Shown: positions 3,514 through 45,497, numbered from the stretch's first letter. The stretch is DNA of 64,000 nt from Ignavibacteriota bacterium (GCA_016218045.1 JACRFB010000063.1:68226-132225), one strand, 5' to 3'. The notes: generated by a model not told the origin, from the letters alone. Program-made: numbers and translations.

Positions 3514-4578
3514 ATGAATAACATCGATTACGCGGCGGCGCGCCGCATGTACGATCCCACCGATCAGCACGGAATACTCCGCGCATTTCCCGATCACATC
3601 ATCACGGGCACAGCCGCCGCCGACGCGGCGCAGCTCCCCACCATCGACCTCTCACATCTGCGTGGTGTCGCCATCGCGGGCATGGGCGGATCGGCCATCG
3701 GCGGGGATATTCTTCGCGGGCTCGCAGCGGAGGGTGTGCCGTATCCGATCCTCGTGCATCGGGGCTACAGCCTGCCCGCCTGTGTCGGCGCGAACTGGCT
3801 GGTGGTCGTGATGAGTTATTCGGGCGGGACGGAGGAATCACTCTCTGCGTACGATGCGGCCGTTCAGCGCGGCTGCACCATCCTCTGTATCACCTCGGGT
3901 GATGGATTCGCCGGGCGCGTCACTCGTGACGGACACGCCGTGATCCGCATTCCGGGTGGTCTGGCGCCGCGATTCGCGCTCGGGCATTTATTCTTCGCGC
4001 TTCTTCGCTGTGTCGAACGCCTCGGAATCGTTCCTGATATGACGCGAGAGCGCGACGAGACGATCGCCGTCGCACGCGCGGCAGTGGCGCGTTTTGCGGA
4101 CCCCGCTGCTCCGGGAAACACGGCCCTGTGGTACGCGGAGATGCTTCACGGCTCGCTGCCTGTGCTCTATGCGGGGCACACGATGCTGGAGCCCGTGCTG
4201 TTGCGCTGGCGCGGACAGATCGAGGAAAATGCGAAGATGCTCGCCTACGGTAACATGCTGCCGGAAATGAACCACAACGAGATCGTCGGGTGGGAAAAAA
4301 ATCCGGATCTGCTGCAACGCATTTCCGTGCTGGTGCTGCGCACGCCCGACGAGCATCCGCGCGTCGCGCTACGCTTCGAGGCCACACTCGGTCTGCTGCG
4401 TCCGCTCGCGGGTCGCATCGAACAGATCGCCGCAACGGCGTCGACACCGCTGGGCCGTGTTTTTGAGCTTGTCTGCCTCGGTGATTGGATCAGCTACTAT
4501 CTCGCCATCGGCGGCGGCATCGATCCGTTTCCGATCGAAAAAATATCGTCACTGAAAAACGCGCTCGCCTCGGCCTGA
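3514..4578 (+). CDS. SIS-domain bifunctional phosphoglucose/phosphomannose isomerase family protein
   Basis: Internal ATG at 3514 (MNNIDYAAARRMYDP) was used instead of the longer ORF at 3244, which overlaps DoxX. Two SIS-like segments AIAGMGGSAIGGDI and VVVMSYSGGTEESL...GCTILCITSG. Confidence 0.6.
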   Translation: MNNIDYAAARRMYDPTDQHGILRAFPDHIITGTAAADAAQLPTIDLSHLRGVAIAGMGGSAIGGDILRGLAAEGVPYPILVHRGYSLPACVGANWLVVVMSYSGGTEESLSAYDAAVQRGCTILCITSGDGFAGRVTRDGHAVIRIPGGLAPRFALGHLFFALLRCVERLGIVPDMTRERDETIAVARAAVARFADPAAPGNTALWYAEMLHGSLPVLYAGHTMLEPVLLRWRGQIEENAKMLAYGNMLPEMNHNEIVGWEKNPDLLQRISVLVLRTPDEHPRVALRFEATLGLLRPLAGRIEQIAATASTPLGRVFELVCLGDWISYYLAIGGGIDPFPIEKISSLKNALASA

Positions 4579-4584
4579 TCCGGC

Positions 4585-7443
4585 ATGTTCGCGCGGCACG
4601 GTATGCGATACAATTGCACACATACGGCACCCTGGAGGAGTTCCGCAGTACCGCTGTTGCTGTTGGTCGTCACAATGTGCGCTCCGGTTCTGCACGCGCA
4701 GTTCCTGCCCTTCGGCAGGAACAAGGTGGCATACACCGATTTTGACTGGCGGGTGCTGGCGACAGAACATTTCGACATCTACTACTACCCGGAGATGGAG
4801 GACCTCGCGCGGCGCGGCGCCACCTTCGCGGAAGCGAGTTTTGTCGAACTCGAGTCGCGGTTCAACTATTCGGTAATGCATCGCATTCCGCTGATTTTCT
4901 ACTCGTCGCACTTGCATTTCCAACAGACGAATATTTCGCCCGGGTTTATTCCCGAAGGTGTGGGCGGATTCTTCGAGTTCATCAAAGGCCGCGTGGTCAT
5001 TCCCTACACCGGCTCGCTCCACCAATTCCGCCATGTGATACAGCACGAACTCGTGCACGTGTTCATGCACAACAAGGTGTCGCAGGTGTTACGCGACCAC
5101 GGGGTGCCCGCGGAACGATACCCGCCGCTGTGGTTCGTGGAAGGACTGGCGGAATATTTCTCGACGCGCTGGGACAGCCAGGCCGAGATGCTGTTGCGCG
5201 ACGCGGTGCATTACGGCTACGTCGCGCCGCTGCGGTCGATCAATATGATCGCGGGATCCTTCCTGATGTACAAGGAGGGTCAGAACGCGCTCACCTTCAT
5301 CGCGGAGGAATACGGTGAGGAGTCGATCGTGCGCATCATCGAGAATGTGTGGAAGTCCGCCGACTTCCGCGACGTGCTGCACTGGAGCACCGGCGCGACG
5401 ATGGACGAGATCGACCGGGCCTGGTTGCGCTGGCTCCGCCGACGGCTGTATCCGCTCGCCGCGACCCGCGACCGCGCGTCCGACGTGGCGGAAGCGCTGG
5501 TCACGGAGGGTTTCGCGGCGAAGCCATTCTGGTACACGCGCGGCGACTCGAGTTACATCGTGTACATGGGCAACAATTCGGGCTACACGGGGGTGTACCG
5601 CGTTTCCACGCGCGGCGCCGAAGCGGAATTGCTGCTCGAAGGTGAGAAGAGCGGCGCCTTCGAGGCGTTTCATGCATATCAGACACGTATATCCGTTACT
5701 TCCGACGGACGTGTCGCCTTTGTGACCAAAAGCGGCGAGCGCGACGTGTTGCACGTGTTCGACATCGAGACGCGCACGCATCTCCGCTCGATGCAGATCG
5801 GCGCGCTTGTGACGCTCGGATCCCCCTCCTGGGCTCCCGACGGTCGGCGCCTGGTGTTGAGCGGAGCCGATGCTTCGGGCGAGTCGGATCTTTACATCGT
5901 CGACGTGGCGCGAGACGAGCTGCGTCCGCTCACACACGATCCGTATGACGACCGCGACCCTGCCTGGTCCCCAGACGGACTCTCGATCGCGTTCGTGTCG
6001 GACCGCGGTACTGGCGGCGCGCGCGGCGCCTTTCAGCTTTTTCTCACCGATACGACGGGACGCACCATCGAGTCGCTCGCGCAGGACAGCGGGAGTTACG
6101 CGGCACCCTCATGGTCGCCCGACGGCCGCTGGCTCCTGTGCACAAACGACCGCGAGGGTGTGCACGACGTGTACGCGCTGAAGCCGCACTCCGCGGGCGC
6201 GGCGCGCAGGACGCTGCGTCGCCTGACCTCCTTGCTCTCGTCGGCCTTTGATCCAATTTGGACAGGTGACGGTGACCTCGTCTTTTCCGCCTTCGACGCC
6301 TACCGCTTCTCGATCCGACGTCTCCGCGGCATCGCCGCGCGCATCGATAGCGCGGACGCTCTCGAGGTCGACATCGCCGGCGGCGGGGAAGAACCATGGT
6401 CGGTTCCGCAGTGGCGCGGCGATGCGGCGAGCGCATCCATCAAGTACGAGCGGGAGTATCAGCTCGACATCGCGCAGAGCCAGATCTCGACGGATCCGAT
6501 CTTCGGTACCGTAGGAGGCGCCGCGTTGAGCGTCAGCGACCTGTTCGGCAACGACAACTACTACTTCCTGATCTACAACACTGCGCAGACCAGCAGCGAA
6601 CTGCTCTCGAGTTTTAACATCGCGGTCTCGCGCATGTCGCTCGGAGCGCGTGCTCCTTACGCATACGGGATCTACAGTTTTTCCGGACGCCGCTACGACC
6701 TGCTCGATCCCGACGAGTACTTCATCGAACGCGCGTATGGCGCGTACGGGGCGCTCGCGTATCCGTTGACGGCATTTCAGCGCATCGAGGGCAGCGTGAG
6801 TCTGGGAAGTTCCGACAAGGAGGCGCTGTATGAGCTGCGGCAGCGCAAGGCACTGCTACTCACCAATTCGGTGTCGTACGTGAGCGACAACGCGCTCTAT
6901 TACATCACCGGACCCATCGACGGAAGCCGCTTCAACGCCACATTGTCCTTCACCACCGACGTGCAGTATTCGAACGTGAATTTCTTTTCCGTGATGGTGG
7001 ATTACCGGCGTTATCTGCGGCTTGGAGCGCGATCCGCACTCGCCACGCGCCTCGAGTTGCTGTACAACGACGGCCGCGAAGCACGGCGGTATTTTCTCGG
7101 AGGGAGCTGGGACCTGCGCGGCTGGCCGCGATGGTCGATACGCGGCAGCAAACGGTGGCTGACCAGTGTCGAACTCCGTTTCCCCGTGCTCGACCGTGTC
7201 GGTTTCGATTTTCCCTTCGGCGCGATCGACCTCGGCGTGTTACGCGGCGCGCTGTTCGCGGATGCCGGTAACGCGTGGGATGACGAATACACAGAGACAC
7301 TCGGGAGCATCGGCGCGGGACTGCGTTTCAATCTGTTCGGCGTGATTGTTTTCCGCTACGATTTCGGGAAGCGTATTGAACGAAATTTCCGGGCCCTGCA
7401 AAGCGGCACGTTTCAGCAGTTTTTCTTCGGGTGGGATTTCTGA
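4585..7443 (+). CDS. Multidomain outer-membrane protein: Glu-zincin-like peptidase domain + TolB-type WD40-like beta-propeller + Omp85/surface-antigen-like C-terminal barrel
   Basis: Signal peptide LLLLVVTMCAPVLHAQ. HEXXH (QHELVHVFMH) plus downstream EGLAEYF. Repeated PDGRRLVLSG / PAWSPDGLSIAFVSDR / PSWSPDGRWLLC TolB-type blades. C-terminus RYDFGKRIERNFRALQSGTFQQFFFGWDF ends in Phe like Omp85-family barrels. Confidence 0.55.
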   Translation: MFARHGMRYNCTHTAPWRSSAVPLLLLVVTMCAPVLHAQFLPFGRNKVAYTDFDWRVLATEHFDIYYYPEMEDLARRGATFAEASFVELESRFNYSVMHRIPLIFYSSHLHFQQTNISPGFIPEGVGGFFEFIKGRVVIPYTGSLHQFRHVIQHELVHVFMHNKVSQVLRDHGVPAERYPPLWFVEGLAEYFSTRWDSQAEMLLRDAVHYGYVAPLRSINMIAGSFLMYKEGQNALTFIAEEYGEESIVRIIENVWKSADFRDVLHWSTGATMDEIDRAWLRWLRRRLYPLAATRDRASDVAEALVTEGFAAKPFWYTRGDSSYIVYMGNNSGYTGVYRVSTRGAEAELLLEGEKSGAFEAFHAYQTRISVTSDGRVAFVTKSGERDVLHVFDIETRTHLRSMQIGALVTLGSPSWAPDGRRLVLSGADASGESDLYIVDVARDELRPLTHDPYDDRDPAWSPDGLSIAFVSDRGTGGARGAFQLFLTDTTGRTIESLAQDSGSYAAPSWSPDGRWLLCTNDREGVHDVYALKPHSAGAARRTLRRLTSLLSSAFDPIWTGDGDLVFSAFDAYRFSIRRLRGIAARIDSADALEVDIAGGGEEPWSVPQWRGDAASASIKYEREYQLDIAQSQISTDPIFGTVGGAALSVSDLFGNDNYYFLIYNTAQTSSELLSSFNIAVSRMSLGARAPYAYGIYSFSGRRYDLLDPDEYFIERAYGAYGALAYPLTAFQRIEGSVSLGSSDKEALYELRQRKALLLTNSVSYVSDNALYYITGPIDGSRFNATLSFTTDVQYSNVNFFSVMVDYRRYLRLGARSALATRLELLYNDGREARRYFLGGSWDLRGWPRWSIRGSKRWLTSVELRFPVLDRVGFDFPFGAIDLGVLRGALFADAGNAWDDEYTETLGSIGAGLRFNLFGVIVFRYDFGKRIERNFRALQSGTFQQFFFGWDF

Positions 7444-8570
7444 TGCGACGCCTGATGCTCGTGCTGCTTCTCACCGCCGGATGCGGATCACTCGAGGAAC
7501 TCGAGACCATCCCGTCGTGGACCACGGCGGAGTGGGGACAGAGCGGCGGAAACGCCTCGCGCACGGCGCGCACGGTGTCGGAGCTTCCGCGGTTGCTCGA
7601 CACACTGGCCGTGTTTCAGCTCGACGGTACACCGTCACCCGGATCGATGATGCTCGCGCAGGGCCTCGTGTTTATCCCCTGCGTGAATGGTGCCATCGAG
7701 GTGGTGGACCTCCGCGCGTTGCGCGCGCTCGGAACGCTCGATCTGACGGGCTGGATCAAGGGCACGCCCGCCCTGGCCGACAGCGTGTTGTACGTGCCGC
7801 TCGCAGCGGGCGGCGGGGAACTCGCGTGTGTGGACATCCCGCGCCGCTCGACACTCTGGCGCGTCGAGGCAGGACTGGTAGAAACCCCGCTGCTTCTGTA
7901 CGGGCGTGATGTCATCGGCTGTACGACAGATGGTGACGTGTTCCGACTTCGCGCGGATTCAACACAGGTGTGGCGCGTAAGCTCCACGAAAGGCATACTC
8001 GCGGCGCCCGCATCGGATGGCGACAGAGTCTTTGCGGGATACAGGGGAGGCATGCTGCGGGCTCTGTCGATACAGGACGGCCGCGAGATGTGGCAGGCCG
8101 CGATCGGCAGCACCATCGAGGCGCCTCCACTTGTTGCAGCCGATCTTGTACTCGCCGCCGGGCGCTCAGGGGATGTGGCGGCCTTCGACCGCAAAAACGG
8201 CACAGAGCGCTGGAGGCGTTCCGTCGTGTCACCCGTGTTCGCGGCGCTCGCGGCCGATACCTCGGCGGTGTACGTCGCCTCCGCCGACGGCATGCTGCAT
8301 GCCCTCGCACTTGTAGATGGACGGACAATGTGGACGGCGCAGGCGGGAGGCCTGGTCAGCGCCGGACTCGTGGTTTCAGGTAGCAGCATTGTGGCAGTGA
8401 CACAGCGCGGACGCATTTCCCTTCGGTCGCGACAGGATGGCACGGAGACGTGGGCGATGTCGATCGGTGGACGCGTGACCACGGCACCGCTTGTGTCGGA
8501 ATCGCGGCTGATAGTATGCACCGCCGATCGCACGGTGTTGGTGCTGGGTGCGAGGGGAGGGGAAAAATGA
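7443..8570 (+). CDS. PQQ-like beta-propeller repeat lipoprotein (BamB/YfgL-like)
   Basis: ATGA overlap with the upstream gene. Lipobox LLLTAGCGS. Repeated PQQ-type blades (VYVASADGMLHALALVDGRTMW, LVLAAGRSGDVAAFDRKNGTERW). Confidence 0.6.
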   Translation: MRRLMLVLLLTAGCGSLEELETIPSWTTAEWGQSGGNASRTARTVSELPRLLDTLAVFQLDGTPSPGSMMLAQGLVFIPCVNGAIEVVDLRALRALGTLDLTGWIKGTPALADSVLYVPLAAGGGELACVDIPRRSTLWRVEAGLVETPLLLYGRDVIGCTTDGDVFRLRADSTQVWRVSSTKGILAAPASDGDRVFAGYRGGMLRALSIQDGREMWQAAIGSTIEAPPLVAADLVLAAGRSGDVAAFDRKNGTERWRRSVVSPVFAALAADTSAVYVASADGMLHALALVDGRTMWTAQAGGLVSAGLVVSGSSIVAVTQRGRISLRSRQDGTETWAMSIGGRVTTAPLVSESRLIVCTADRTVLVLGARGGEK

Positions 8571-9328
8571 TAAAACGCCTCGCAATAAACTTGCTGATGC
8601 TGGCTGCGGTGTGCACGGCGCAGGGCCAGCAGGGCGATCCGTTGTCCCTGCGGTCGACAATCATAGAATCGGTGCCCGCGGGCGCGGAAGTGTGGCGCGC
8701 GGATTCACTGCTCGGTCAGACGCCGCTGCGGCTCACCGGACTGGAAAAGGACACGTTGCTCCTTTATTATCCCGGCCGGAGCATATGGCGCGCGAGACGC
8801 ACAGCCCTCCCGCCTCCGCGTCTCGACGCGCAGCAGGGAGTAAACCGCGTGGTGTTTGCGGAGCGGTACAGGGTGAGCACTGAGCCGCCGGATGCCGCGG
8901 TGTACTGCGGCGATTCCCTGCTCGGGCGCACGCCGCTCGAATTCGAGAACTGTGAAACGGCGGGGATCCGGGTCACAAAACCCGGCTACCGCGAACTGCG
9001 CGGCATCATACCGGGCGAGGATGGTTCGGCCCGCGTCATCCTCGATCCGCTCCCGGGAGCTGTCCCTCAGCCGCAGGTTCGGGACGCGGCCTCGTTCCGT
9101 TCCCCGGGCACCTCGGTGCTTGCGGCCGCGGGATTGGGGCTCGCTGCGGGTACGGCATCGGTCATTCTCAAACGCAGTGCCGACCGGCATTACGACGACT
9201 ACCGCCGCAGCGGCGACAATGCGGCGCTTCGCGCTACGCGGCGCGATGATTTGTGGGCCGGAATTTGCCTTGTAGCACTGGAGGCATCGGTCGGATATTT
9301 GGTCTTCCTTTTGTTCCACGACCGATAA
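8567..9328 (+). CDS. PEGA domain-containing protein
   Basis: Internal start MIKRLAINLLMLAAVCTAQG (signal peptide) overlaps the previous stop. Two PEGA-like segments (PAGAEVWRADSLLGQTPL; PPDAAVYCGDSLLGRTPL). C-terminal TM helices. Confidence 0.5.
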   Translation: MIKRLAINLLMLAAVCTAQGQQGDPLSLRSTIIESVPAGAEVWRADSLLGQTPLRLTGLEKDTLLLYYPGRSIWRARRTALPPPRLDAQQGVNRVVFAERYRVSTEPPDAAVYCGDSLLGRTPLEFENCETAGIRVTKPGYRELRGIIPGEDGSARVILDPLPGAVPQPQVRDAASFRSPGTSVLAAAGLGLAAGTASVILKRSADRHYDDYRRSGDNAALRATRRDDLWAGICLVALEASVGYLVFLLFHDR

Positions 9329-9433
9329 GGCGTATCTTTGCGCTTCGACGCACACCACAGCGAATTCAGCCTCAAGACCACGGAACGAGACGCTTTCGCT
9401 GTGTACCGCGTTGACCTCGCCCAAGGTACCCCC

Positions 9434-10261
9434 ATGTCAGAAAAGGTCGATCTCCACACCCACACCCACTATTCCGACGGCGTGCTTTCGCCGCGCGAAC
9501 TTGTGATGCGCGCCGCCGAGATGGGCATCGGCCTGCTCAGCATCACCGATCACGACAGCATCGACGCGCTGGAGGAAGCCGTCGAGGCGGGCAGGGAATT
9601 CAGTGTGGACGTCATCCCCGGTGTTGAACTCAGCGCGACTCTGGGTAACAAAGACATCCATATCCTGGGCTATCTCTTCGATCCCAAAAACCCGTATTTG
9701 CGCCAGACGCTCGATCTGTTCAAACGAGAACGTTTCAGCCGCGCGGCGCGGATCGTCAAAAAACTCAACCAGCTCGATCTCCCGCTGTCCTTCGACACCG
9801 TGCTCGAACGCGCGGGTCATGGCGCCATCGGCCGGCCGCATATCGCGGAGGCGCTTGTGGAGGAAGGCCTGACCGATACGTATTCACAGGCATTCGAAAC
9901 GCTTATCGGCGACTCCGGCCCCGCCTTCGAACCGAAGTACCGCATCTCACCCGAGGACGCGGTCGACATCATCGCGAATGCCGGCGGCGTCTCGATTCTC
10001 GCGCATCCCGGCTGGTACATCACCGAAGACGAACTTGTGCAGCTCATCCGCGCGGGGCTCGACGGCATCGAGACAGTACATCCCGCCCACGACGACGTCC
10101 GCCGCCGTTTCTACAGCGGCATCGCATCCACCTATTTCCTGCTCGAAAGCGGGGGATCGGACTTCCACGGCGGACGCCGCAACGATTACCAGAACTTCGG
10201 CAGTTTCACCATATCGCAAGACTATGTTCTCGCGATGAAACGCCGTCTCTTCATCCAATAG
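9434..10261 (+). CDS. PHP-domain metal-dependent phosphoesterase (TrpH/YciV-like)
   Basis: DLHTHTHYSDG...ITDHD PHP motifs. Start taken at MSEKVDLHTHT. Confidence 0.65.
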   Translation: MSEKVDLHTHTHYSDGVLSPRELVMRAAEMGIGLLSITDHDSIDALEEAVEAGREFSVDVIPGVELSATLGNKDIHILGYLFDPKNPYLRQTLDLFKRERFSRAARIVKKLNQLDLPLSFDTVLERAGHGAIGRPHIAEALVEEGLTDTYSQAFETLIGDSGPAFEPKYRISPEDAVDIIANAGGVSILAHPGWYITEDELVQLIRAGLDGIETVHPAHDDVRRRFYSGIASTYFLLESGGSDFHGGRRNDYQNFGSFTISQDYVLAMKRRLFIQ

Positions 10262-10276
10262 TCAGGAGTACAGGAC

Positions 10277-10756
10277 ATGAACGCACCGGTGCAGGGCGAC
10301 CTCCAGGCCGGATCCTCCCGATTCGCGATTGTCGCGAGCCGTTTCAACGACGTCATCACGCGCCGCCTGATAGAAGGCGCCACGGACTGCCTCCTGCGGC
10401 ACGGCGCCGATCCGTCGGCGATCGACACATACATCTGCCCGGGGTCCTTCGAAATTCCCCTGGTTGCATCTCGCATCGCCGCCACGAAAAAGCACGACGC
10501 AATCGTCTGTCTCGGCGCAGTGATCAAAGGAGACACGCCGCATAACGAGTATATCGCCGCGGAAGTGACAAAGGGCATCGCGCAGCTCATGCTGCAGCAT
10601 CAGCTCCCCATCTCGTTCGGTATCCTGACCACAAACACGCTCGAACAGGCGCTCGAACGCGCGGGACTCAAACACGGCAACAAGGGGTGGGAAGCCGCGC
10701 TCTCCGCTCTCGAAATGGTGAATCTTCTCGGTCAGATCGAACCCTCGGCAGCATGA
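10277..10756 (+). CDS. ribH: 6,7-dimethyl-8-ribityllumazine synthase
   Basis: RFAIVASRFNDVITRRLIEGA and 159 aa are typical of RibH. AGGAG RBS upstream. Confidence 0.85.
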   Translation: MNAPVQGDLQAGSSRFAIVASRFNDVITRRLIEGATDCLLRHGADPSAIDTYICPGSFEIPLVASRIAATKKHDAIVCLGAVIKGDTPHNEYIAAEVTKGIAQLMLQHQLPISFGILTTNTLEQALERAGLKHGNKGWEAALSALEMVNLLGQIEPSAA

Positions 10757-12996
10757 GTCACGTTTTCAGGACGCTGTTCCTGTTCCTTGCGGCCGGTACA
10801 GCACTCTTCGCACAGACCGGGTCGTGGAAGACCTACACCTCCATGCGGGAGGTGCGTGACCTTGCGGTCACCGGCCGCGACATTTGGGCGGCTACAGCGG
10901 GCGGCGTGTTCCGCTACGCGACGAGTGACGGCACATTCACATCATACACCAATGTTGAGGGACTCGCGTCGATCGATATCCGCGCGGTTGAAATCGATGC
11001 AAACGGCCGGATCATCGTCGGCGCGGCCACGGGTGCATTGAATATTCTCGAGCCCGGCGGCGGGTGGATTTCCGTGCTCGACATCGCACGCGCGACAGAC
11101 AAACCACAGCGGGGAATCAATGCCATCCGGACAAAGGAAGGCCGGATTTACATTGCCACCGACTTCGGTGTATCGGTGTACAATCCCGTGACACGCGAGT
11201 TCACGGAGACCTGGCAGAAATTCGGTGCCCTCCCCGCACAATCGAGCGTGAAGGACATATATTTTACCGGACAGTCGATCTGGATCGCGACAGCGGAAGG
11301 AATTGCACACGGTGATGCCGGAAGCGCGAACCTTCAGGATCCCTCGTCATGGACCTCGTACACTGCTGCCGACGGCCTCCCTTCGAAGGTCGTTTCTACC
11401 ATTGTGTCGTATGGCGGCACCATTGTTGTCGGGACGGACAAAGGGTGCGCGCGGCTTGAGTCCGGCTCGTGGCTTCCCGTCTATCTCGACGCGGGCGCAG
11501 TTCCGGTGCGCGAGATCATCACACGCGAGGACACGCTGTTTTTTATCACCGACGAGTATATGTACCGCGTGGAGGGGTCGGCTGTTCCACAACGCATCGG
11601 CCCTTCCTCCACCGATCCCCGTTATGGAAGAAACACCGTGTACACGCGGCTCGCGCTTATGGCCGGTGAAGCCGGTCCCCTGCTAGGATCGAGCAAGGGT
11701 GTGAGCCGTTACTCCACGGCAGGGTGGAGTTTTGTACAGCCGGACGGTCCGATTGCCAACCAGATTTCATCACTGGCCGTTGACGATTCCGGCGTAGTCT
11801 GGAGCGCGTCCCCGGGGAGCGGTGTGTCGGGATATAACGGCGTACAATGGCGCCAGTATTCCCCCTCCACAAATCCTCCGTTACCCGCTGAGGATCCGCG
11901 TGTTGTAGCGGCCGGACCGGATGGCTCGTTGCTCATCGGCACGTGGGGTTCCGGCGTGGTGCGTCGAAATGCCGACGGCACGCTGCACCGTTATGATCGC
12001 AACACACATCCCGAGTTTCCCGGAATTCCAGACAGTCCGGAATTCAGTCCCATCGGCGGGCTGATGACCGATACGAAGGGCAACATCTGGATGGTCCATC
12101 ATCGCGGTGCGAACGCGCGCATACTCAGTTGCCTGACCCGCGACGGCCGCTGGTACACCTATCGGAATCCCTACTACGACGACGCGTATGTGTACGGCCT
12201 CGGCATCGATCAGTTCGGCACGAAGTGGCTGTGGGGGGGATACAATTTTCTGGGCGTGATCACGTTTAACGAAAACGGCACGCTCGAATCCACCGGTGAC
12301 GACGTGTGGAAAAAAGTGGATCCCAACGCCTATCTCGCGGACAAGGTGCTTGTCGCCACAACCGACCGCCTCGGTGACGTGTGGATAGGAACGCCCCTCG
12401 GCCCGCGCACCGTGTACAATCCGTCGACACCCGAGCGGTCCTCGCGCACATGTTACAACACGCGGTGCAACCTCGAAGGTCTTGTCGTGAACTGCCTCGC
12501 CATCGATCCGGTCAACAACAAGTGGCTCGGTACAAACGCCGGTGTGTTTGTCCTGTCGTCGGACGGGAGCACCATCATCGAGCAGTATACGGTGGACAAC
12601 AGCCCGCTCATCGACAACGCTGTCAGGAGCATCGTTGTTCATCCCGCCACCGGCGACGCGTATTTCGGAACCAACAAGGGTATCTCCCGCCTTTCGACGC
12701 CGTTTGTACAGGCGGCAGCGACAGGGAAGGAACTCCGTGTGTCACCGAATCCCTTCCGTCCCGACATCGACGGCCAGGCGCGTATCGACGGACTCGCGGA
12801 GGGCTCCACCATGAAGATTCTCGCACCGTCCGGCTCGGTGGTGCGCGAGATCACGACACCGGGCGGTCGTATCGGATTCTGGGACGGAAAAGACGAGGAT
12901 GGTGAGTACGTCGCCTCCGGCGTGTATATCATCGCGGCCTACCAGGCCGACGGCTTGGAAACGCGGCTCGGGAAAATCCTGGTCGTAAGGCAGTAG
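10753..12996 (+). CDS. Two-component-regulator-propeller (Reg_prop)-type beta-propeller protein with T9SS C-terminal sorting domain
   Basis: ATGA overlap with ribH. Signal peptide FLFLAAGTALFAQ. Repeated W-containing propeller blades. C-terminus SPNPFRPD...GVYIIAAY...GKILVVRQ resembles Por_Secre_tail. Confidence 0.5.
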   Translation: MSHVFRTLFLFLAAGTALFAQTGSWKTYTSMREVRDLAVTGRDIWAATAGGVFRYATSDGTFTSYTNVEGLASIDIRAVEIDANGRIIVGAATGALNILEPGGGWISVLDIARATDKPQRGINAIRTKEGRIYIATDFGVSVYNPVTREFTETWQKFGALPAQSSVKDIYFTGQSIWIATAEGIAHGDAGSANLQDPSSWTSYTAADGLPSKVVSTIVSYGGTIVVGTDKGCARLESGSWLPVYLDAGAVPVREIITREDTLFFITDEYMYRVEGSAVPQRIGPSSTDPRYGRNTVYTRLALMAGEAGPLLGSSKGVSRYSTAGWSFVQPDGPIANQISSLAVDDSGVVWSASPGSGVSGYNGVQWRQYSPSTNPPLPAEDPRVVAAGPDGSLLIGTWGSGVVRRNADGTLHRYDRNTHPEFPGIPDSPEFSPIGGLMTDTKGNIWMVHHRGANARILSCLTRDGRWYTYRNPYYDDAYVYGLGIDQFGTKWLWGGYNFLGVITFNENGTLESTGDDVWKKVDPNAYLADKVLVATTDRLGDVWIGTPLGPRTVYNPSTPERSSRTCYNTRCNLEGLVVNCLAIDPVNNKWLGTNAGVFVLSSDGSTIIEQYTVDNSPLIDNAVRSIVVHPATGDAYFGTNKGISRLSTPFVQAAATGKELRVSPNPFRPDIDGQARIDGLAEGSTMKILAPSGSVVREITTPGGRIGFWDGKDEDGEYVASGVYIIAAYQADGLETRLGKILVVRQ

Positions 12997-28740: not shown

Positions 28741-30465
28741 TCACCGACCGTCGCGTTCCGCGGGACGGAATATTCGGACAGGTGGGTCAGTAATAGACAG
28801 ACTGTCGGTGACCCACGTGCCCTCGGGGTTTGCGCGCGGCGAACGCACGATGATGCGGCGTTCCTCGCGTGTGCCGGGAGGCGCGGGCGGGAAGCTGTGG
28901 TTGCGATGAATCTCGATGCTGGTGTCGAAACGGACGCCGGGCGGCAGCGGCGCCTCGGTCGATCCGTTCCACTGGAACTTGAAACCCGGAATTGCTTCGA
29001 GCGATTTCTCGACGAGCGAGTCGACATCCATGTCGATATTCACACTTCCGTTCCCGTCGTGCATCACACGTATCTGCATGCGACGGGAGGGCAGAGAGGC
29101 GTCGGGGCGTGGCGTCGCAGGAGGACGCGGGCTTCTGGCTCGCACCACCACACGTGTGTCCTGACGGGTGGTCGGCGTGCGGTCGATATAGAGCGTCAGT
29201 CCGTTTTCATCGGGTGTTGCAACAACGCCGCGGACAACCACATGCAGGTCTTGCTCGACCTCGCTCAACGATTCCTCGATCAGATGGAGACTCTTTTCGT
29301 ACTCGCGTCCCGTGGCGGCATACTCGCGCGCGCTGCGTTCGACGAACCGCGCCACATCCTCGCTGCGTGAGATGTTCGTCACACGCTGCAGCGTGACCGA
29401 GTTCTGCAGTTCGCGCGCGTATCTGCGGCGCACGTCCTCGAAACGTGTCGTGATCGAGGGGATGGGCTGCGGTGTCGCAAGCATCGTTTCGCGCAGACTG
29501 TCGAGATCCACCGTCAGCGGAACGAGTTCCACCGCGGCGTCACGGAGATACACGAACTGCTGCGGCTGCCCTTCGACGCGGATGCGGCTGTACAGCTCGG
29601 CCGGCGGCGGCGGCGGTACTGCCGCTGTTTCCTCGATACTGTACGCGGCATCCCGTGTGCGGAGGAAGCGATCGAGCCGGATGCGCTGCGCGGGTTCGAG
29701 GGACGAGGCCAGCGTGCCGAGTATCGTTGCATGGAGATGCGTCACGGACGGATCGATCGCCACATCACGTTCACGTCCCATGAGCACGACGGATTCGAGG
29801 CGCTGTTGCGCGAGCAGGAGCACGGAATCCATGATGCGCTGCTGCGTCGGAGTGGCGCGCACCTCGCGATACAGATCCTCGACCGTGATACGAGGCGACA
29901 TGGCGCGATCGTTCTTTCCGAGTTCGATACGGTAGGCGCGCGATGAATCCTGCTCGATGCGGAGCACGGAGGACTGCTGCTCGTCGAGCGGCAGCGTGCC
30001 GTACATTGCGAATTGCAGGACGCGGTCCTTGTCGGTCTTTTCGAACAGCGGCATTATCCATTCACCGCCCATGGTCTCCTGATACGCGAGCTGCACTTCC
30101 TCGCCTTTGCGCGAGAGATATCCGGCGATGGTATCGCGGTTCCAGTATGCCCATGCTCCGCCCGCCAGGACGAGCGCCAGGACGGCGACGGAAAATGCGG
30201 CCCGGAAACGGAGAGGAATGTCGGGGAAAAGTTCTGTGCCGCGTTCCTTCCGCACCTCGATGTTTTCGCGGAGACGAGGCCAGAAGGTCGGGTCTTCCAT
30301 AATGGCAGGCATGCGGCGCAGTATGAAGCCGGGATCATTCTGTTCCGGATCCGTGCCGGTGCCGATCGCTGATGCACCGGCAGTCCGCATCGTGTCGTCG
30401 TTTTCGGGAAGAGGACCGGATCCGCTTCGCGGAGTGTCGAGGTTCATGTCGTCACCGGGTTTCAT
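28741..30465 (-). CDS. Putative anti-sigma factor / large single-pass membrane protein co-transcribed with ECF sigma
   Basis: ATGA overlap with the upstream sigma gene. One TM helix (FSVAVLALVLAGGAWAYW) after about 90 cytoplasmic residues. About 450-aa extracytoplasmic region with no recognisable domain. Confidence 0.35.
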   Translation of the reverse strand: MKPGDDMNLDTPRSGSGPLPENDDTMRTAGASAIGTGTDPEQNDPGFILRRMPAIMEDPTFWPRLRENIEVRKERGTELFPDIPLRFRAAFSVAVLALVLAGGAWAYWNRDTIAGYLSRKGEEVQLAYQETMGGEWIMPLFEKTDKDRVLQFAMYGTLPLDEQQSSVLRIEQDSSRAYRIELGKNDRAMSPRITVEDLYREVRATPTQQRIMDSVLLLAQQRLESVVLMGRERDVAIDPSVTHLHATILGTLASSLEPAQRIRLDRFLRTRDAAYSIEETAAVPPPPPAELYSRIRVEGQPQQFVYLRDAAVELVPLTVDLDSLRETMLATPQPIPSITTRFEDVRRRYARELQNSVTLQRVTNISRSEDVARFVERSAREYAATGREYEKSLHLIEESLSEVEQDLHVVVRGVVATPDENGLTLYIDRTPTTRQDTRVVVRARSPRPPATPRPDASLPSRRMQIRVMHDGNGSVNIDMDVDSLVEKSLEAIPGFKFQWNGSTEAPLPPGVRFDTSIEIHRNHSFPPAPPGTREERRIIVRSPRANPEGTWVTDSLSITDPPVRIFRPAERDGR

Positions 30466-32729: not shown

Positions 32730-32866
32730 GGCGTATTCCGTATCGGTTGGAAAACAGTGGAGGATGCGGGAGTGTATTACCCGGCGCAAGTACGCATGAG
32801 AATCGCCGATAAAGTACTCGGATTCTCCCCAAGAGTCAACTGCGCGTCGAAATGTGTGTTGTTTTC

Positions 32867-33994
32867 TCAGCCGTGCGCGCGACGGAAGCGCCACACCGCC
32901 GCGCCGAACATACACACGCCGAACGCCGCGAGCGACGCCGTCTCCTTCCACAATTCCGCCGGGCCGCTGCCCTTGAGATAGATTTCACGCAGCACCGTCA
33001 GATAGTAGCGCACCGGGTTGGCGTAGGTGATCGTTTGAATCGCGTCGGGCATGTTAGCGATGGGGATAAAAAATCCCGACAGCAGCATGGCAAATATCAT
33101 GAAGAACCACGCGACGAACAGGGCCTGCTGCTGCGATTCGGCGACGGTGGAAATCAGGATGCCGAGACCGAGCGTCGTGAGGAGAAACAGGGCCGATTCG
33201 GCGAGCAGCAGCGGGATGCTTCCGGCGACACTGATGTCGAAGATCAGCCAGACAAACACCATCGCGAGAATAATCTCGAGAAAGCCGAGAATCGTGAAGG
33301 GGATGATCTTTCCCGCGATGAACTGATACGAGCGTATGGGTGTGACGAGCAACTGTTCCAGCGTGCCGATTTCCTTCTCGCGCACGATGCCCATGCTGGT
33401 GAGAAATACCGTGATGATGACGAGAATGATCGCCATGATGCCGGGAACGATATACACCTTGCTCTCGAGATTTGGATTATACCAATACCGCGCTTCGGGC
33501 TCCGCGCCGCGAATGGCGGCGCCGCGGCGCGCAAGCCCCGGATCCGCCTCGAGAAGTCGTGCCTGGAAATTGCGGGATATGTCGGCTGCGTATGCGAGCG
33601 CAATGCCCGCGGTGTTGCCGTCGAGTCCATCGACCATGAGCTGCAGCGCGGGGCTGCGTCCGCGCACCGCATCACGCTGGAAGCCCTCGGGGATCGAGAG
33701 GGCGAGCTGTGCCTCGCTGCGGTCCATATGTCCCGTCAGTGTGCTGCCGCCGCGCTGCTCGCGTCCCACGAGTTTGAAGTACCGCGTGTGCGCGAACGAC
33801 TCGATGAGTTGTCGGCTCATGGGTGTGTCGTCGGCGTCGTGAATCACGAGGCGCAGATCCACAACATCGGTGGTGACCGCGTTTCCAAGAATAAATATCT
33901 GGATCAGCGGCACAACAAAGAGCAGGCCCAGCATGACGCGGTCGCGCGCGATCTGGCGGAATTCCTTCTGGACGAGGTAGAGTATCTGCTGCAT
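32867..33994 (-). CDS. ABC-2 type transporter permease
   Basis: Six TM helices plus an N-terminal soluble loop. YbhR/YbhS-like arrangement. Confidence 0.7.
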   Translation of the reverse strand: MQQILYLVQKEFRQIARDRVMLGLLFVVPLIQIFILGNAVTTDVVDLRLVIHDADDTPMSRQLIESFAHTRYFKLVGREQRGGSTLTGHMDRSEAQLALSIPEGFQRDAVRGRSPALQLMVDGLDGNTAGIALAYAADISRNFQARLLEADPGLARRGAAIRGAEPEARYWYNPNLESKVYIVPGIMAIILVIITVFLTSMGIVREKEIGTLEQLLVTPIRSYQFIAGKIIPFTILGFLEIILAMVFVWLIFDISVAGSIPLLLAESALFLLTTLGLGILISTVAESQQQALFVAWFFMIFAMLLSGFFIPIANMPDAIQTITYANPVRYYLTVLREIYLKGSGPAELWKETASLAAFGVCMFGAAVWRFRRAHG

Positions 33995-34006
33995 GCCGTC
34001 GCGCCC

Positions 34007-35128
34007 CTAATCCAATGTCACCTTGAAACGTTTGATCGCAATGGCGAGAATACCAGCGCCTATGCCCGCGAGCGCGAGCGTTTCGGGTAGAATATCGGAA
34101 ATACCGACCCCTTTCAGCATAATACCGCGGATGATGACCAGATAGTACGTCGCGGGAAGCGCGCGCGACACAAGCTGCAGGGGCGCGGGCATGCTCGCGA
34201 TGGGGAAGAGGAAGCCGCTCATGAGAAAGGTCGGAAGTATCGTCGACATCACCGTCATAAGCATCGCTATCTGCTGCGATTTGGCGATGGTGGAAATGAG
34301 CAGGCCGAAACTGAGCGCGACAAAGATGTAGACGACGGACAGGACGAGGAGAAGAAGGGGACTGCCCACCACGGGTGTTCCGAACAGCGCCATGGCCGAG
34401 ACCACGATGAGAGCGCCGTTGGCCATACCGATGAGCACATAGGGCAGAACCTTCCCGATGATGATCTCGACCGGGTGTATGGGCGAGACGAGGATCTGCT
34501 CCATCGTGCCCGATTCCTTCTCTCGCGTGATGGTGATGGAGGTGAGCAGCGCGCTGGTCAGCATGAGGAGCAGGGCGATCAGTCCGGGCACAAAAAAGTG
34601 CGTGCTCTTCATGTCGGGATTGTAGAGGATTTTTGGTTCCACCGTTGCGAGCGACGCCTGCACGATGCCCTGCGATTGATTGAAGAGGCGAAATACGTTC
34701 GCCGCGTACGTGCCGACGTAGGTTCCGACATTCGAATCGGTCGCATCAACGAGCACCTGCACTTTGACGGACGGTCCTGTGCGCAGGGCCTGCGCGAAGT
34801 CGCGCGGAATGACCAGCACCATCTTTGCGTTGCGCGAGCGGAAGATCTCCTCCGCCGCGGACGCGGCACCCGCATACCCTGCAAAGTGAAAAAAGCCGTT
34901 GCGGCGGAACGCATCGATGAGCGCGCGGCTCTCGGGCGTGTGCGAATCGTCGACGACGGCAAAATCGATGTTACGCATGTCGAGCGTGATGCCGTAACCG
35001 TAGAGGGCGATCATCAGCACCGGCATCAGGAGCACTATCATCAACGAGCGGAAATCACGGAGTATGTGGATCAACTCCTTGCGCATGATCGCAACCAGGC
35101 GACGTGGCATTCCGCGCATCTCCGTCAC
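34007..35128 (-). CDS. ABC-2 type transporter permease (paralog)
   Basis: Same architecture as the neighbouring permease. 4-nt overlap with the upstream ATPase. Confidence 0.7.
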   Translation of the reverse strand: MTEMRGMPRRLVAIMRKELIHILRDFRSLMIVLLMPVLMIALYGYGITLDMRNIDFAVVDDSHTPESRALIDAFRRNGFFHFAGYAGAASAAEEIFRSRNAKMVLVIPRDFAQALRTGPSVKVQVLVDATDSNVGTYVGTYAANVFRLFNQSQGIVQASLATVEPKILYNPDMKSTHFFVPGLIALLLMLTSALLTSITITREKESGTMEQILVSPIHPVEIIIGKVLPYVLIGMANGALIVVSAMALFGTPVVGSPLLLLVLSVVYIFVALSFGLLISTIAKSQQIAMLMTVMSTILPTFLMSGFLFPIASMPAPLQLVSRALPATYYLVIIRGIMLKGVGISDILPETLALAGIGAGILAIAIKRFKVTLD

Positions 35129-39785: not shown

Positions 39786-40319
39786 TCAGAATTCCGCGCG
39801 GTGTATCACCGGGGAACAGGAGGCACAGAATTCCGCGGGTTTGATGTCGATGTCCTCGACGTAGGTCGAGGCGTTCATGACGCAGGGTTCGTCGGCGCAG
39901 TGGCGCAGTCCGTAGGTGTGCCCGAGTTCGTGCAATGCCTCCTTGAATGAACGGCGGCGGAGCAGATGCGACGACGGCGCCAGACCGTAGAGATCGTTGC
40001 GCAGACGGAACGAGGAAAAAATGCAGGCGCGGGCGGCCAGTTGCGCCTGTCCGAAAATGTAGGTGAGCACGGGCAGAAAAAGATCGTGCGAGGTGACGCC
40101 GAGCAGTTTCGTCTTGCCGGGTGGAGCAGTGTCGAGCAGCATCTGCAGGATTCGTCCGCTGTGGTACTGCCTGCGCGAGGCGTCGTATGCCTCGCGGATG
40201 GGGACGGGCAATGCGCCGACCGTGACACGGGCCGCGAGCACCTGGCCCAGATCCGCGGCGAATTCGTCGAGAGACAGGTCGCGGTCGGCTTCGAGCGGGA
40301 TGAGCAGAATGTCCGTCAT
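39786..40319 (-). CDS. Archaemetzincin-family zinc metallopeptidase (M54)
   Basis: HELGHTYGLRHCADEPCVMN is the HEXXHXXGXXH-C-x4-C-x-M archaemetzincin signature. Confidence 0.65.
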   Translation of the reverse strand: MTDILLIPLEADRDLSLDEFAADLGQVLAARVTVGALPVPIREAYDASRRQYHSGRILQMLLDTAPPGKTKLLGVTSHDLFLPVLTYIFGQAQLAARACIFSSFRLRNDLYGLAPSSHLLRRRSFKEALHELGHTYGLRHCADEPCVMNASTYVEDIDIKPAEFCASCSPVIHRAEF

Positions 40320-40332
40320 TCCTTCGTCACCG

Positions 40333-41694
40333 CTATTCCGGCCGCTTCAGTCCGTACTTTTCGATCTTATTGTACAGTGTGACACGATCGATGGCCAGCC
40401 GCTCGGCGGAGCGGGTGATGTTCCAATTCATCTCCGAGAGCACCTGCACGATATGCCTGCGCTCCACATCCGCGAGACTCTCGCCGGCTGCGCCCGCGGC
40501 CCGCGTCGAGAGATGCATGGGCAGATCCTCCTCCTCGATGAAAGGCCGCGACGACACAACCATCGCGCGCTCAACCGCATTCTCGAGTTCACGCACATTG
40601 CCCGGCCACGCGTACGTCGTAAGCAAAGACATGGCGCCTTCGGAAAACTCCTTCGCGGTGCGATTCATCAGCCGCGCGTACTTGTGCACAAAATGTTCCG
40701 CCAGCATCGGTATGTCGCCCCTCCTCTCGCGCAGGGGCGGTATCGTGATCGCAAACACGTTGATGCGGTAGTACAGGTCCTCTCTGAACGTCCCGTCGCG
40801 CACGGCCGCCTCGAGGTCGGCATTGGTCGCACAGATGAGACGGAAATCCACGTGTATGGTCTGCTCGCCGCCCACGCGCTGGAACTGATGCGATTCGAGC
40901 ACGCGCAGCAGATCCACCTGGGTCTTGGGCGCAAGTGTGCCGATTTCGTCCAGGAACAGTGTTCCGCCATTTGCCATTTCGAATTTCCCTTTGCGTCTGT
41001 ACTGCGCGCCCGTGAACGATCCCTTTTCATGTCCGAAGAGTTCGCTCTCGAGCAGCGACTCCGACAGAGCGCCGCAGTTTACGGGGATGATGGGGAAGTA
41101 CTTCCGTGTGCTGTTCGCGTGTATTGCCCGCGCGATCAACTCCTTGCCCGTGCCGCTTTCGCCGCGTATCAGCACGGTCGATTTTGTCGGGGCCACGGTG
41201 CGGACGAGGTCGAATACCTTCACCATCTCCTCGCTCGCTCCGACGATGTCGTCGATATGATGCAGCGCGTCGACGGTCTGGCGGAGCTGCGCATTCTCTC
41301 GCGCGAGGCGTCGCTGCTGCGCCGCGTTGCGTACCATCGTCGAGAGCTCGTCGGGGTCGATCGGTTTGGTTACGTAATCGAAGGCGCCTGCCTTGAGGGC
41401 TCGGACGGCGGTGTCGACCGACGCGAACGCCGTGATGATGATGATGATGATGTCGGTATCGAATTCCCGGATGCGTTCCTGCAGCGCAAGGCCGTCCATG
41501 CCGGGCATCTTGATGTCCAGCAGCACGAGATCGATTCGTTCGCGCTGCAGGATGTCGAGGGCGGCGGCGGCGTTCTCGGCCGTGTGTACGCTGTAGCCGT
41601 CCTCGAGGAACCATTGTTCCAGGGATTCGCGGACGGACGCTTCGTCGTCAACGACGAGCAGGTGTATCGACGAAGTGGAGAGGGGATCGGTCAT
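40333..41694 (-). CDS. Sigma-54-dependent response regulator (NtrC family: REC + AAA+ + Fis-HTH)
   Basis: LLVVDDE...D(54-like) receiver. GESGTGKE Walker A. GAFTGA-like loop (EKGSFTGA). ESELFGHEKGSFTG. C-terminal HTH. ATGA overlap with the kinase gene. Confidence 0.85.
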   Translation of the reverse strand: MTDPLSTSSIHLLVVDDEASVRESLEQWFLEDGYSVHTAENAAAALDILQRERIDLVLLDIKMPGMDGLALQERIREFDTDIIIIIITAFASVDTAVRALKAGAFDYVTKPIDPDELSTMVRNAAQQRRLARENAQLRQTVDALHHIDDIVGASEEMVKVFDLVRTVAPTKSTVLIRGESGTGKELIARAIHANSTRKYFPIIPVNCGALSESLLESELFGHEKGSFTGAQYRRKGKFEMANGGTLFLDEIGTLAPKTQVDLLRVLESHQFQRVGGEQTIHVDFRLICATNADLEAAVRDGTFREDLYYRINVFAITIPPLRERRGDIPMLAEHFVHKYARLMNRTAKEFSEGAMSLLTTYAWPGNVRELENAVERAMVVSSRPFIEEEDLPMHLSTRAAGAAGESLADVERRHIVQVLSEMNWNITRSAERLAIDRVTLYNKIEKYGLKRPE

Positions 41695-44282: not shown

Positions 44283-45497
44283 TCAGGAAACGGACACTTC
44301 GACCGTACCTTTCGGTGCTTCGCCTTTCACCGGACGGGCGGCCGAGAGGCGCACGGTCTGGTGTTTCTCCTCGTGCGAGATATCGGCGAAGATCGGGAGA
44401 TGTTTGACCGCGAAGCCGAACACCCAGAAACCGACTGTCACCACTGCAAGCGACACAAAAATCTCGCCGACGGAGGGGAAATACACGCCACCGTAATACG
44501 GTTCAATCGAAGTGAGCGCTACGTTGAGGCGGTTGGTGACAAAACCCAGCACCACCGACATGGCGCAGAGCGACAGGCCGAGACGCGTCTGCCCGAAGCC
44601 ACGGATGTTGAAGAGCACGATCGGCAGGACGAAGAACAGGGCGAGTTCCACGAGCAGCATGATTGTTTGCAGCGAGCCGTCGAGAAGCGCGAACTTGTTG
44701 CCGTGCACCATGTCGATCAAACGCATGGTTACGTACACAGTGGCGACACCGATCATTGCGCGGGCAAGGTCTCGCAGCAATGGCGTCTCGAGCGCCTTGT
44801 TAAAGACACGCGCGCTGAGGTACGACTCGACAATGGTCATCGCCAGGCCCACGGTGACGGCCGACACGAAGAAAAACACCGGCAGCATCGGCGAGTACCA
44901 GAAGGGATGCATTTTCTCGGGGATGATGAGATAGAGACTGCCAAGCGAGGACTGGTGCAGCATCGACAGGAGGATGCCCGCGACAACAAGCGGTATCGTG
45001 ATGGCCTTCATGATCTTGAGCAGGCGTGTCATCTTGAAGCGCTCGAGCACCACCGGACTGAATTCGAGGGCAAGCACCGTGGTGTAGAGCATCACACACC
45101 AGGCCACTTCGAACATGACCGAATGAGGATTCCACATGATGATCGCATGCCAGATCGACCAGGGACGTCCGAGGTCGAACATGAGACCCACGATCACGAG
45201 CAGATAACCGAGGAAGGCCGTCAGTACCGTCGGACGGACGATGGCCTTGAAGCGTTTCAGATTGAACACGTACACAATACCGCACAGAGTGAATCCGCCG
45301 GCGGCCAGACCCACTCCGGTGACAACATCGAAACCGATCCAGATGCCCCACGGTGCGGCATCGGAGAGATTGGTGGCCTTGCCGAGCCCGAAGGCAAAAC
45401 GCATGACGGCCGAGACGAGTCCGCCGAGCACAAAAAATGCGCCGAGGATCTTCCAGAAGGACAAGTGTTTTTTCAGGGATATCATGGACGACCTCAC
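44283..45497 (-). CDS. NrfD/PsrC-family polytopic membrane (quinone-interacting) subunit
   Basis: About 10 TM helices. NrfD-like motifs (SLYLIIPEKMHPFWYSP). 4-nt overlap with the upstream Fe-S gene. Confidence 0.75.
   Translation of the reverse strand: MRSSMISLKKHLSFWKILGAFFVLGGLVSAVMRFAFGLGKATNLSDAAPWGIWIGFDVVTGVGLAAGGFTLCGIVYVFNLKRFKAIVRPTVLTAFLGYLLVIVGLMFDLGRPWSIWHAIIMWNPHSVMFEVAWCVMLYTTVLALEFSPVVLERFKMTRLLKIMKAITIPLVVAGILLSMLHQSSLGSLYLIIPEKMHPFWYSPMLPVFFFVSAVTVGLAMTIVESYLSARVFNKALETPLLRDLARAMIGVATVYVTMRLIDMVHGNKFALLDGSLQTIMLLVELALFFVLPIVLFNIRGFGQTRLGLSLCAMSVVLGFVTNRLNVALTSIEPYYGGVYFPSVGEIFVSLAVVTVGFWVFGFAVKHLPIFADISHEEKHQTVRLSAARPVKGEAPKGTVEVSVS

Follow-up and report, generated by a model that had tools for sequence, protein, structure and literature searches.

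What is the task of an Omp85-type outer-membrane barrel that carries a peptidase domain and a beta-propeller on its N-terminal side? The question is raised by three adjoining genes (genes 1 to 3, positions 4585-9328) in a 64,000-nucleotide stretch of an Ignavibacteriota bacterium genome (GCA_016218045.1, JACRFB010000063.1:68226-132225), referred to here as the window. Omp85 proteins are central to the building of the outer membrane, and almost all knowledge of them comes from the POTRA-bearing BamA, TamA and TpsB. The product of gene 1, a fusion of peptidase, propeller and barrel, had been left without a family in an initial annotation of the sequence. It is a member of the catalogued, experimentally unstudied WD40-like Omp85 subfamily (PMC4104836), which is large and conserved across several phyla. 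The reading preferred here is that of a periplasm-facing, outer-membrane-anchored zinc peptidase that would work with the products of genes 2 and 3 on envelope proteins; we consider the chances that it is correct to be about even. The parts of the gene 1 protein (amino acids, aa) are as follows.

4585..7443, plus strand: gene 1, WD40-like Omp85 fusion, 952 aa (open reading frame call, Pfam, NCBIfam, AlphaFold2)
4585..4698, plus strand: signal peptide, aa 1-38, hydrophobic core PLLLLVVTMCAPVL, predicted cleavage LHA|QF (sequence reading)
4699..5484, plus strand: gluzincin-fold metallopeptidase domain, aa 39-300 (domain model, Foldseek, profile against the PDB)
5491..6372, plus strand: TolB-type PD40 beta-propeller, aa 303-596 (PD40, TIGR02800, Foldseek, strand count)
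6442..7440, plus strand: POTRA-less Omp85-type beta-barrel, aa ~620-952 (PF01103, Foldseek, barrel profile)

The 952-aa open reading frame (ORF) with signal peptide, peptidase, propeller and barrel agrees with the initial annotation, and the HEXXH, EGLAEYF, SWSPDG-type and C-terminal FFFGWDF motifs lie where it placed them; the barrel, which it put at residues 700-952, spans aa ~620-952. Signal-peptide cleavage probably occurs at LHA|QF, and Gln39, which would form the mature N-terminus, is invariant in 60 orthologues. Pfam searches, as the annotation had proposed, found PD40 repeats (E=7e-19) and PF01103 (Omp85; aa 694-931, E=1e-12, 48.5 bits against a gathering cut-off of 24); the third family proposed, Peptidase_MA_2, stayed below its gathering cut-off in the fusion. 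An AlphaFold2 (AF2) model of the full-length protein, built on the 60 orthologues (mean predicted local distance difference test score, pLDDT, 77.6; predicted template-modelling score, pTM, 0.61), consists of a mainly helical domain (aa 55-300), the propeller strands and then a long-stranded barrel that runs to the C-terminus. The blades, barrel closure and active-site placement were judged from secondary-structure strings and Foldseek matches only.

The propeller is closest to TolB. Its 24 predicted strands (aa 303-596) amount to six four-stranded blades, as in TolB, and PD40-type motifs SWAPDG, AWSPDG and SWSPDG occur at aa 415, 460 and 509. TolB is the top match to this region both by sequence and by fold (Foldseek against the PDB, E=3e-10). 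Tricorn and S9 enzymes, in which a propeller is combined with a peptidase, are also among the fold matches, and the precomputed Pfam matches are Tricorn_N and Tricorn_2nd. The fusion is not a TolB orthologue, however. By the NCBIfam curated cut-offs, which were used for all equivalog tests, TIGR02800 scores 109.5 bits against 343.15 and its match is confined to the propeller. The N-terminal domain of TolB is absent, the propeller of the fusion shares one polypeptide chain with a barrel and a peptidase, and an ORF and Pfam survey of the window found no tol-pal genes adjoining gene 1.

The C-terminal third has the marks of an Omp85 barrel, three of which are given here.

7099..7125, plus strand: GGSWDLRGW, counterpart of the Omp85 loop-6 (V)RG(F/Y) motif (conservation, BamA alignment)
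7255..7269, plus strand: FADAG, counterpart of the Omp85 (F/G)xDxG strand motif (conservation, BamA alignment)
7414..7440, plus strand: QQFFFGWDF, C-terminal beta-signal-like strand with terminal Phe and Gly at -3 (conservation)

Foldseek searches of the PDB matched the BamA barrels of E. coli, Deinococcus and Flavobacterium, with target-based template-modelling scores (TMt) of 0.55-0.59 for those of E. coli and Deinococcus; among the BamA barrels matched are 7r1v (0.56) and 8xnb (0.59). A barrel profile made from 13 diverse homologues retrieved BamA from the PDB at E=7e-9. The region thus models as a BamA-like barrel, as the initial annotation had supposed, and not as a soluble beta-sandwich. 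In the alignment with E. coli BamA, GGSWDLRGW (L844-R845-G846-W847) falls on GGSSTVRGF, and LFADAGNAWD (F891-A-D893-A-G895) falls on FFWDMGTVWD. R845, G846, E863, R865, P867 and F952 are invariant among the 13 homologues, and D893 and G949 are at least 90% conserved. The AF2 model contains 14 confident barrel strands, nine before loop 6 and five after it, as in BamA beta12-beta16; two further strands probably lie in the conserved, low-confidence stretch 619-658. The QQFFFGWDF end is presumably comparable to the ...IGKTW terminus of BamA. No POTRA domain was matched by Pfam in the gene 1 protein and, since the propeller ends at aa 596 and the barrel starts at ~620, there is no room for a beta-alpha-alpha-beta-beta unit. 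The POTRA called for by the classical Omp85 definition is therefore missing, which sets the WD40-like subfamily apart.

The likeness to BamA covers the barrel fold, the loop-6 (L6) RG(F/Y) motif, FxDxG and the C-terminal aromatic residue; the difference is that BamA has five POTRAs where the fusion has none, its N-terminus consisting of an enzyme and a propeller. BamA orthology was rejected (TIGR03303, 35.5 bits against a cut-off of 297.15), in agreement with the view of the initial annotation that this is not a classical BamA, and so was orthology to TamA/TamL (TamL, 14.7 bits against 400). A type Vd autotransporter, built from patatin, POTRA and barrel, found no patatin or POTRA match in Pfam. 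The fusion might be an insertase or translocase similar to BAM (the machinery for beta-barrel assembly) or TAM (the module for translocation and assembly), a proposal we regard as unlikely. A barrel with a lateral gate would be the working part, the peptidase would trim or mature the clients, and the lipoprotein encoded by gene 2 would be an accessory; the propeller would replace the POTRA/BamB scaffold, in line with the "BamA-BamB fusion" of Heinz and Lithgow (PMC4104836). In its favour, the L6 RG(F/Y/W) and FxDxG motifs and the Gly three residues before the terminal aromatic show little or no variation, and the stretch predicted to form strands 1 and 2 (~620-655) combines extreme conservation with low model confidence, as a mobile seam might. 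But the motifs are superfamily-wide and may be purely structural, the scores fall far under the BamA and TamL equivalog cut-offs, and the POTRA, which receives the substrate in every studied Omp85 insertase or translocase, is absent.

The subfamily itself was defined by Heinz and Lithgow (2014, Front Microbiol 5:370; PMC4104836), who divided the Omp85/TpsB superfamily into ten subfamilies, one of them called "WD40-Omp85" or "WD40-like". Their Table S2 gives its members PF01103 plus one to five PF07676 repeats, and Table S3 lists for each member a BamA/TamA barrel match, a TolB propeller match and a "best aminopeptidase hit" (1z5h, 4kxd and 4fgm, at ~99% Phyre2 confidence). The fusion has the same POTRA-less architecture, with PF01103 and PD40, and the same best structural matches, namely TolB, BamA/TamA and M1-type aminopeptidases. 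The members named include proteins from Caldithrix, Rhodothermus, Chloroherpeton, Sorangium and Anaeromyxobacter, the first three of these being lineages related to the loci found here; L0G1A4 of Echinicola vietnamensis is also given as WD40-like. The text of PMC4104836 treats the propeller only, suggesting a BamA-BamB fusion, and leaves the peptidase unmentioned; neither the conservation of catalytic residues nor the lipoprotein/PEGA operon described below was found in that paper. In two papers published in 2024, the "WD40-like" or "WD40 and peptidase" Omp85 subfamily is still termed uncharacterised. At NCBI the close homologues bear the names "PD40 domain-containing protein" or, alternatively, "BamA/TamA family outer membrane protein".

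When 5.8 billion proteins were searched, more than 5,700 homologues were found. The top 120 match over their full length, are 52-67% identical, and come from Ignavibacteria and from "Bacteroidota" metagenome-assembled genomes. Among 1.84 billion representatives at 50% identity, ~1,630 proteins match at E<=1e-30; of the top 150, the majority have a length of 900-1,100 aa and an alignment from ~residue 25 to the end. In a sample of 62 loci, with one genome per species, identity to the fusion is 51-60% in Ignavibacteriota, 44-48% in Calditrichota, 45% in Rhodothermaceae, 37% in Zixibacteria and 25-28% in Gemmatimonadota, Vicinamibacterales and "Ca. Benthicola". A large clade of ~1,030-aa proteins from Vicinamibacterales (Acidobacteriota; P0121-P0240, L061 and L063) has no PF01103 match on record. 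It keeps the RG, ExRxP, FxDxG and terminal-Phe motifs of the barrel, and domain-based counts of Omp85 proteins therefore miss it.

The peptidase domain carries a complete set of zinc-binding and catalytic residues in three motifs.

5044..5058, plus strand: HELVH, zinc-binding/catalytic motif with H154, E155 and H158, aa 154-158 (conservation)
5140..5160, plus strand: EGLAEYF, aa 186-192, with E186 as predicted third zinc ligand (conservation, M1/M9 alignment)
5266..5283, plus strand: MYKEGQ, with Y229 as candidate transition-state tyrosine (conservation, collagenase alignment)

H154, E155, H158, E186 and Y229 are invariant in the 60 orthologues (52-67% identity) and also at 25-42% identity in Zixibacteria, Gemmatimonadota, Vicinamibacterales and "Ca. 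Benthicola", so that the HEXXH is conserved as the initial annotation would have it; G187 is invariant in homologues as well. When aa 36-305 were modelled alone (pLDDT 79, pTM 0.78), 47 of the 50 Foldseek PDB matches listed were gluzincins of families M1, M9 or M30, at Foldseek probabilities of 0.9-1.0. Those listed include IRAP, PepN, ERAP1 and Tricorn factor F3 from M1, the peptidase domains of ColT, ColG and ColH from M9, and lugdulysin from M30; the remaining three are weaker and consist of another metallopeptidase, an M61 aminopeptidase and a TFIID subunit. A profile of the domain matched a Vibrio M9 collagenase (1.6e-3) and human M1 aminopeptidase A (1.7e-3) in the PDB, and in the alignment the HEXXH, a Tyr and the region of E186 coincide with their M1 and M9 counterparts, the ligand motif of which is "W(L/w)xEG(F/I)A". 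Y229 aligns with the Tyr of "IYRWGY" in Vibrio collagenases and may have a catalytic role. H158 and E186 are 27 residues apart; in this the fusion is like M9, as seen from the zinc ligands of ColG, H523/H527/E555.

The peptidase domain is therefore called here a gluzincin of MA(E) type, without a MEROPS family assignment. It shares with M1 and M9 peptidases the thermolysin-like catalytic fold, the HEXXH with a downstream Glu in "WxxEGxA" and the conserved Tyr, but identity is ~12-16% and the other domains of those enzymes are absent from the fusion. It is not an M1 aminopeptidase, in which the spacing is 18 rather than 27 and a GXMEN motif, not recognised here, is expected; a conserved GGFFEF (127-132) sits upstream of HELVH, but its equivalence to GXMEN could not be shown. 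M9 membership is likewise unsupported, since Peptidase_M9 matches relatives alone, and there at 16-17 bits where 26 would be required. Since the catalytic set is completely conserved, the domain is predicted to be an active zinc peptidase.

The contrary proposal, that the HEXXH module is a pseudo-peptidase or binding module in a non-catalytic scaffold, is in our opinion highly improbable. Such a protein would have a structural task like that of TolB, connecting outer membrane, cell wall and the PEGA protein of gene 3 in the inner membrane. The propeller is indeed nearest to TolB, the Peptidase_MA_2 score is sub-threshold, and the three predicted locations, with barrel and lipoprotein both in the outer membrane and the PEGA protein anchored in a membrane, are reminiscent of a trans-envelope assembly. 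However, all zinc and catalytic residues are invariant across phyla at 25-29% identity, whereas pseudo-enzymes normally lose some of them, and the fusion has neither the N-terminal domain nor anything near the equivalog score of TolB.

Three stretches of the fusion have a pLDDT below 50 yet are among the most conserved: aa 39-53 (window 4699-4743; QFxxFGRNKVxY, at the mature N-terminus), aa 112-133 (window 4918-4983; the QQTN...GGFFEF loop) and aa 619-674 (window 6439-6606; YxLDIAQSQISTDPVFGTxGGA, at the start of the barrel). These may be mobile or partner-binding elements. In PlpD, a segment of the patatin-like domain swaps strands with a neighbouring barrel (PMC11116518).

The two genes that follow gene 1 encode its candidate partners.

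7443..8570, plus strand: gene 2, PQQ-type beta-propeller lipoprotein, 375 aa, lipobox LLLTAG|C (PQQ_2, lipobox)
8567..9328, plus strand: gene 3, PEGA-domain protein, 253 aa, with signal peptide (PEGA, hydrophobic segments)

Pfam matches are PQQ_2 at E=7e-31 for the gene 2 product and PEGA at E=7e-11 for that of gene 3. The stop of gene 1 and the start of gene 2 overlap by 1 nt in TGATG, whereas the start of gene 3 overlaps the stop of gene 2 in ATGA; the coupling of the lipoprotein gene claimed in the initial annotation is real, but the ATGA assigned to it belongs to the lipoprotein/PEGA junction. In the PEGA protein, which has no sequence match in the PDB, two hydrophobic segments near the C-terminus (183-201 and 232-250) flank a basic loop. 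Gln is found at +1 after the predicted cleavage site in both the fusion (LHA|QF, 4693-4704) and the PEGA protein (TA|QGQQ, 8612-8626); this fits the "Q-rule" reported for exported proteins of Bacteroidetes.

BamB is an eight-bladed PQQ-type propeller lipoprotein that docks on POTRA3 of BamA. The gene 2 product shares its Pfam family, a point in favour of the insertase proposal. But a true BamB was rejected (TIGR03300, 138.8 bits against a cut-off of 285.2), the nearest natural protein of solved structure is the archaeal PQQ propeller 3hxj (4e-24, as against ~3e-15 for the BamB structures), and the POTRA3 docking site does not exist in the fusion. The term "BamB-like", used in the initial annotation, is therefore valid only at the level of the fold and the PQQ_2 family.

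The linkage of these genes was followed in 50 loci that have a complete fusion gene and enough downstream DNA. A PQQ lipoprotein homologue lies directly downstream on the same strand, with its start within 700 bp, in 46 of them; these span Ignavibacteriota, Calditrichota, Rhodothermaceae and Zixibacteria, with fusion identity down to 37%. The lipobox is conserved among the homologues, and the stop/start overlap recurs in many loci, as seen from a repeated "...GFLM" reading of the FFFGWDF-TGA-TG junction. After the lipid-modified Cys the sequence is typically [SG]GL[RK][IL], without an acidic export-type motif. A PEGA homologue was detected by tblastn as the third gene in 28 of the 50 loci. Its orthologues conserve a C-terminal signature (a hydrophobic helix rich in Gly and Ala, then a basic loop, then another hydrophobic helix at the terminus), and the same signature occurs in the third gene of the three tblastn-negative loci inspected (L015, L018 and L030), so the true count is above 28. 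The downstream pair is thus conserved, which points to a dedicated module. This gene-context link, not found in the literature, is a modest new observation.

In many Ignavibacteriota the order is PGI (bacterial-type), fusion, lipoprotein, PEGA, PHP, ribH and PorZ (window 3514-12996; L001-L056). Outside this phylum only the fusion, lipoprotein and, in part, PEGA genes stay together. The linkage to PGI, PHP, ribH and PorZ being limited to Ignavibacteriota, genes 1 to 3 are singled out as the functional unit. Several orthologues with the same gene order, 48-60% identical (L001, L025 and L003/L008/L009), are from metagenome-assembled genomes labelled Ectothiorhodospiraceae, Bacillota or Chitinophagales; because the synteny is of the Ignavibacteriota type, these labels look like taxonomic errors. 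A promoter and terminator scan of 4300-9600 gave counts no higher than in shuffled sequence and was uninformative.

On which side of the outer membrane would the peptidase and propeller reside? To our knowledge, in all structurally known Omp85 proteins the N-terminal domains are at the periplasmic end of strand 1. A protein of related design is PlpD of type Vd, for which self-export was reportedly proposed at first. Like the fusion, it has an Omp85 barrel with an N-terminal hydrolase domain; unlike the fusion, its hydrolase is a patatin lipase followed by one POTRA, instead of a zinc peptidase and propeller without POTRA. By analogy PlpD would be the best precedent for the proposed topology of the fusion, and its enzyme domain has been placed in the periplasm by experiment (PMC11116518). 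The Omp85 topology and PlpD together suggest that the peptidase and propeller of the fusion face the periplasm.

The opposite arrangement is a surface-displayed protease whose barrel exports its own peptidase-propeller part, which then digests external proteins or peptides for nutrition; we judge it very doubtful. It is in keeping with the "surface machine" of the initial annotation, with the propeller-plus-peptidase designs of Tricorn and S9 enzymes among the fold matches and the Tricorn_N and Tricorn_2nd matches in Pfam, and, circumstantially, with the PorZ and PorV-like proteins encoded nearby. But PlpD, the model case of self-export, keeps its enzyme domain in the periplasm (PMC11116518), and ~560 residues, including a closed propeller, would need to pass through a 16-strand barrel. 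Furthermore, the partner lipoproteins have no conserved acidic motif after the Cys, and the predicted hairpin and basic loop of the PEGA protein fit inner-membrane anchoring and a periplasmic complex. The surface machine thus found no support, the N-terminal domains being expected in the periplasm.

The preferred reading, a periplasm-facing peptidase anchored by its barrel, leads to the following model. Export by the Sec pathway, followed by insertion of aa ~620-952 in the outer membrane as a BamA-type 16-strand barrel, is suggested by the signal peptide, by the Omp85 fold and by the aromatic strand at the C-terminus. With no POTRA intervening, the barrel would directly carry the six-bladed propeller and the gluzincin peptidase on its periplasmic side. 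Zinc would be bound by H154, H158 and E186, with E155 as the general base and Y229 assisting catalysis. Since propellers so act in Tricorn and S9 peptidases, that of the fusion would most probably limit access to unfolded chains or peptides, or dock a partner, and it may gate the active site. The fusion would form a working unit with the lipoprotein, to which it is translationally coupled, and with the PEGA protein in its membrane anchorage; at the inner face of the outer membrane, this module would process envelope proteins by proteolysis or control their quality.

The logic would be like that of BepA at BAM, but built from other parts. BepA, a zinc protease of family M48, is soluble and separate from BAM, on which it docks, and it includes a TPR domain. 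The possible analogy is functional only, in that both would be periplasmic zinc proteases at an outer-membrane Omp85 protein; fold and family are unrelated, and in the fusion the protease is joined to the barrel.

Several observations weigh against this model. The Peptidase_MA_2 (PF13485) match of the fusion is weak (E=1.2e-4, 22.4 bits, under the gathering cut-off of 32.4); among orthologues, a Calditrichia protein (L026) passes at 36.3 bits and one from Rhodothermaceae (L044) falls just short at 31.9 bits. Fold similarity to the gluzincins is modest (E ~0.01-0.3; query-based template-modelling score, TMq, 0.41-0.54), and the conserved aa 39-53 and 112-133 of the peptidase domain were modelled at low confidence. 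The barrel keeps BamA-type functional motifs, the Gly at -3 included, which fits more than passive anchoring. The loci of Vicinamibacterales, Gemmatimonadota and "Ca. Benthicola" have other neighbours and no lipoprotein gene, so the partners are not universal to the family. Finally, full-text literature searches found no experimental work on any WD40-like member.

A bolder version of the model, which we hold to be improbable, is that genes 1 to 3 encode an undescribed three-part envelope machine for quality control or maturation of outer-membrane proteins, composed of a barrel with a propeller-gated protease, an outer-membrane lipoprotein and an inner-membrane-anchored PEGA protein. If so, the machine would serve a core function passed on by vertical inheritance in Ignavibacteriota, Calditrichota, Rhodothermota and Zixibacteria, and to insertion and translocation, the known jobs of the Omp85 scaffold, a third would be added. 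Should the protease act on envelope proteins at the outer membrane, it would also show how bacteria without E. coli-type accessory factors manage. The subfamily offers handles for such work: an invariant catalytic site, two conserved partner genes and cultured relatives (Rhodothermus, with D0MEQ5 of R. marinus, and Caldithrix, with H1XQ58 of C. abyssi).

The rest of the window includes other exported and propeller-type proteins. A 1,094-aa Sortilin/BNR-repeat protein and an S9 prolyl-oligopeptidase-family peptidase (48140-51424 and 52687-54573) are both propeller-type and exported; no link between them and the fusion was seen in the window. A type IX secretion context is indicated by a PorZ gene above the NCBIfam cut-off (335 against 260 bits), a PorV-like 610-aa protein and a possible secreted adhesin of 2,129 aa, in which DUF7948, PKD and Ig-like domains occur (intervals 10687-12996, 54628-56460 and 56702-63091). 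Spurious antisense ORFs are numerous in the window, which is 61% guanine plus cytosine. Putative genes without a Pfam match at E<=1e-5 are the long ORFs (379-675 aa) at 28741-30465 (minus strand), 40063-42090 (plus), 32852-34090 (plus), 45437-46576 (plus) and 47978-49222 (minus).

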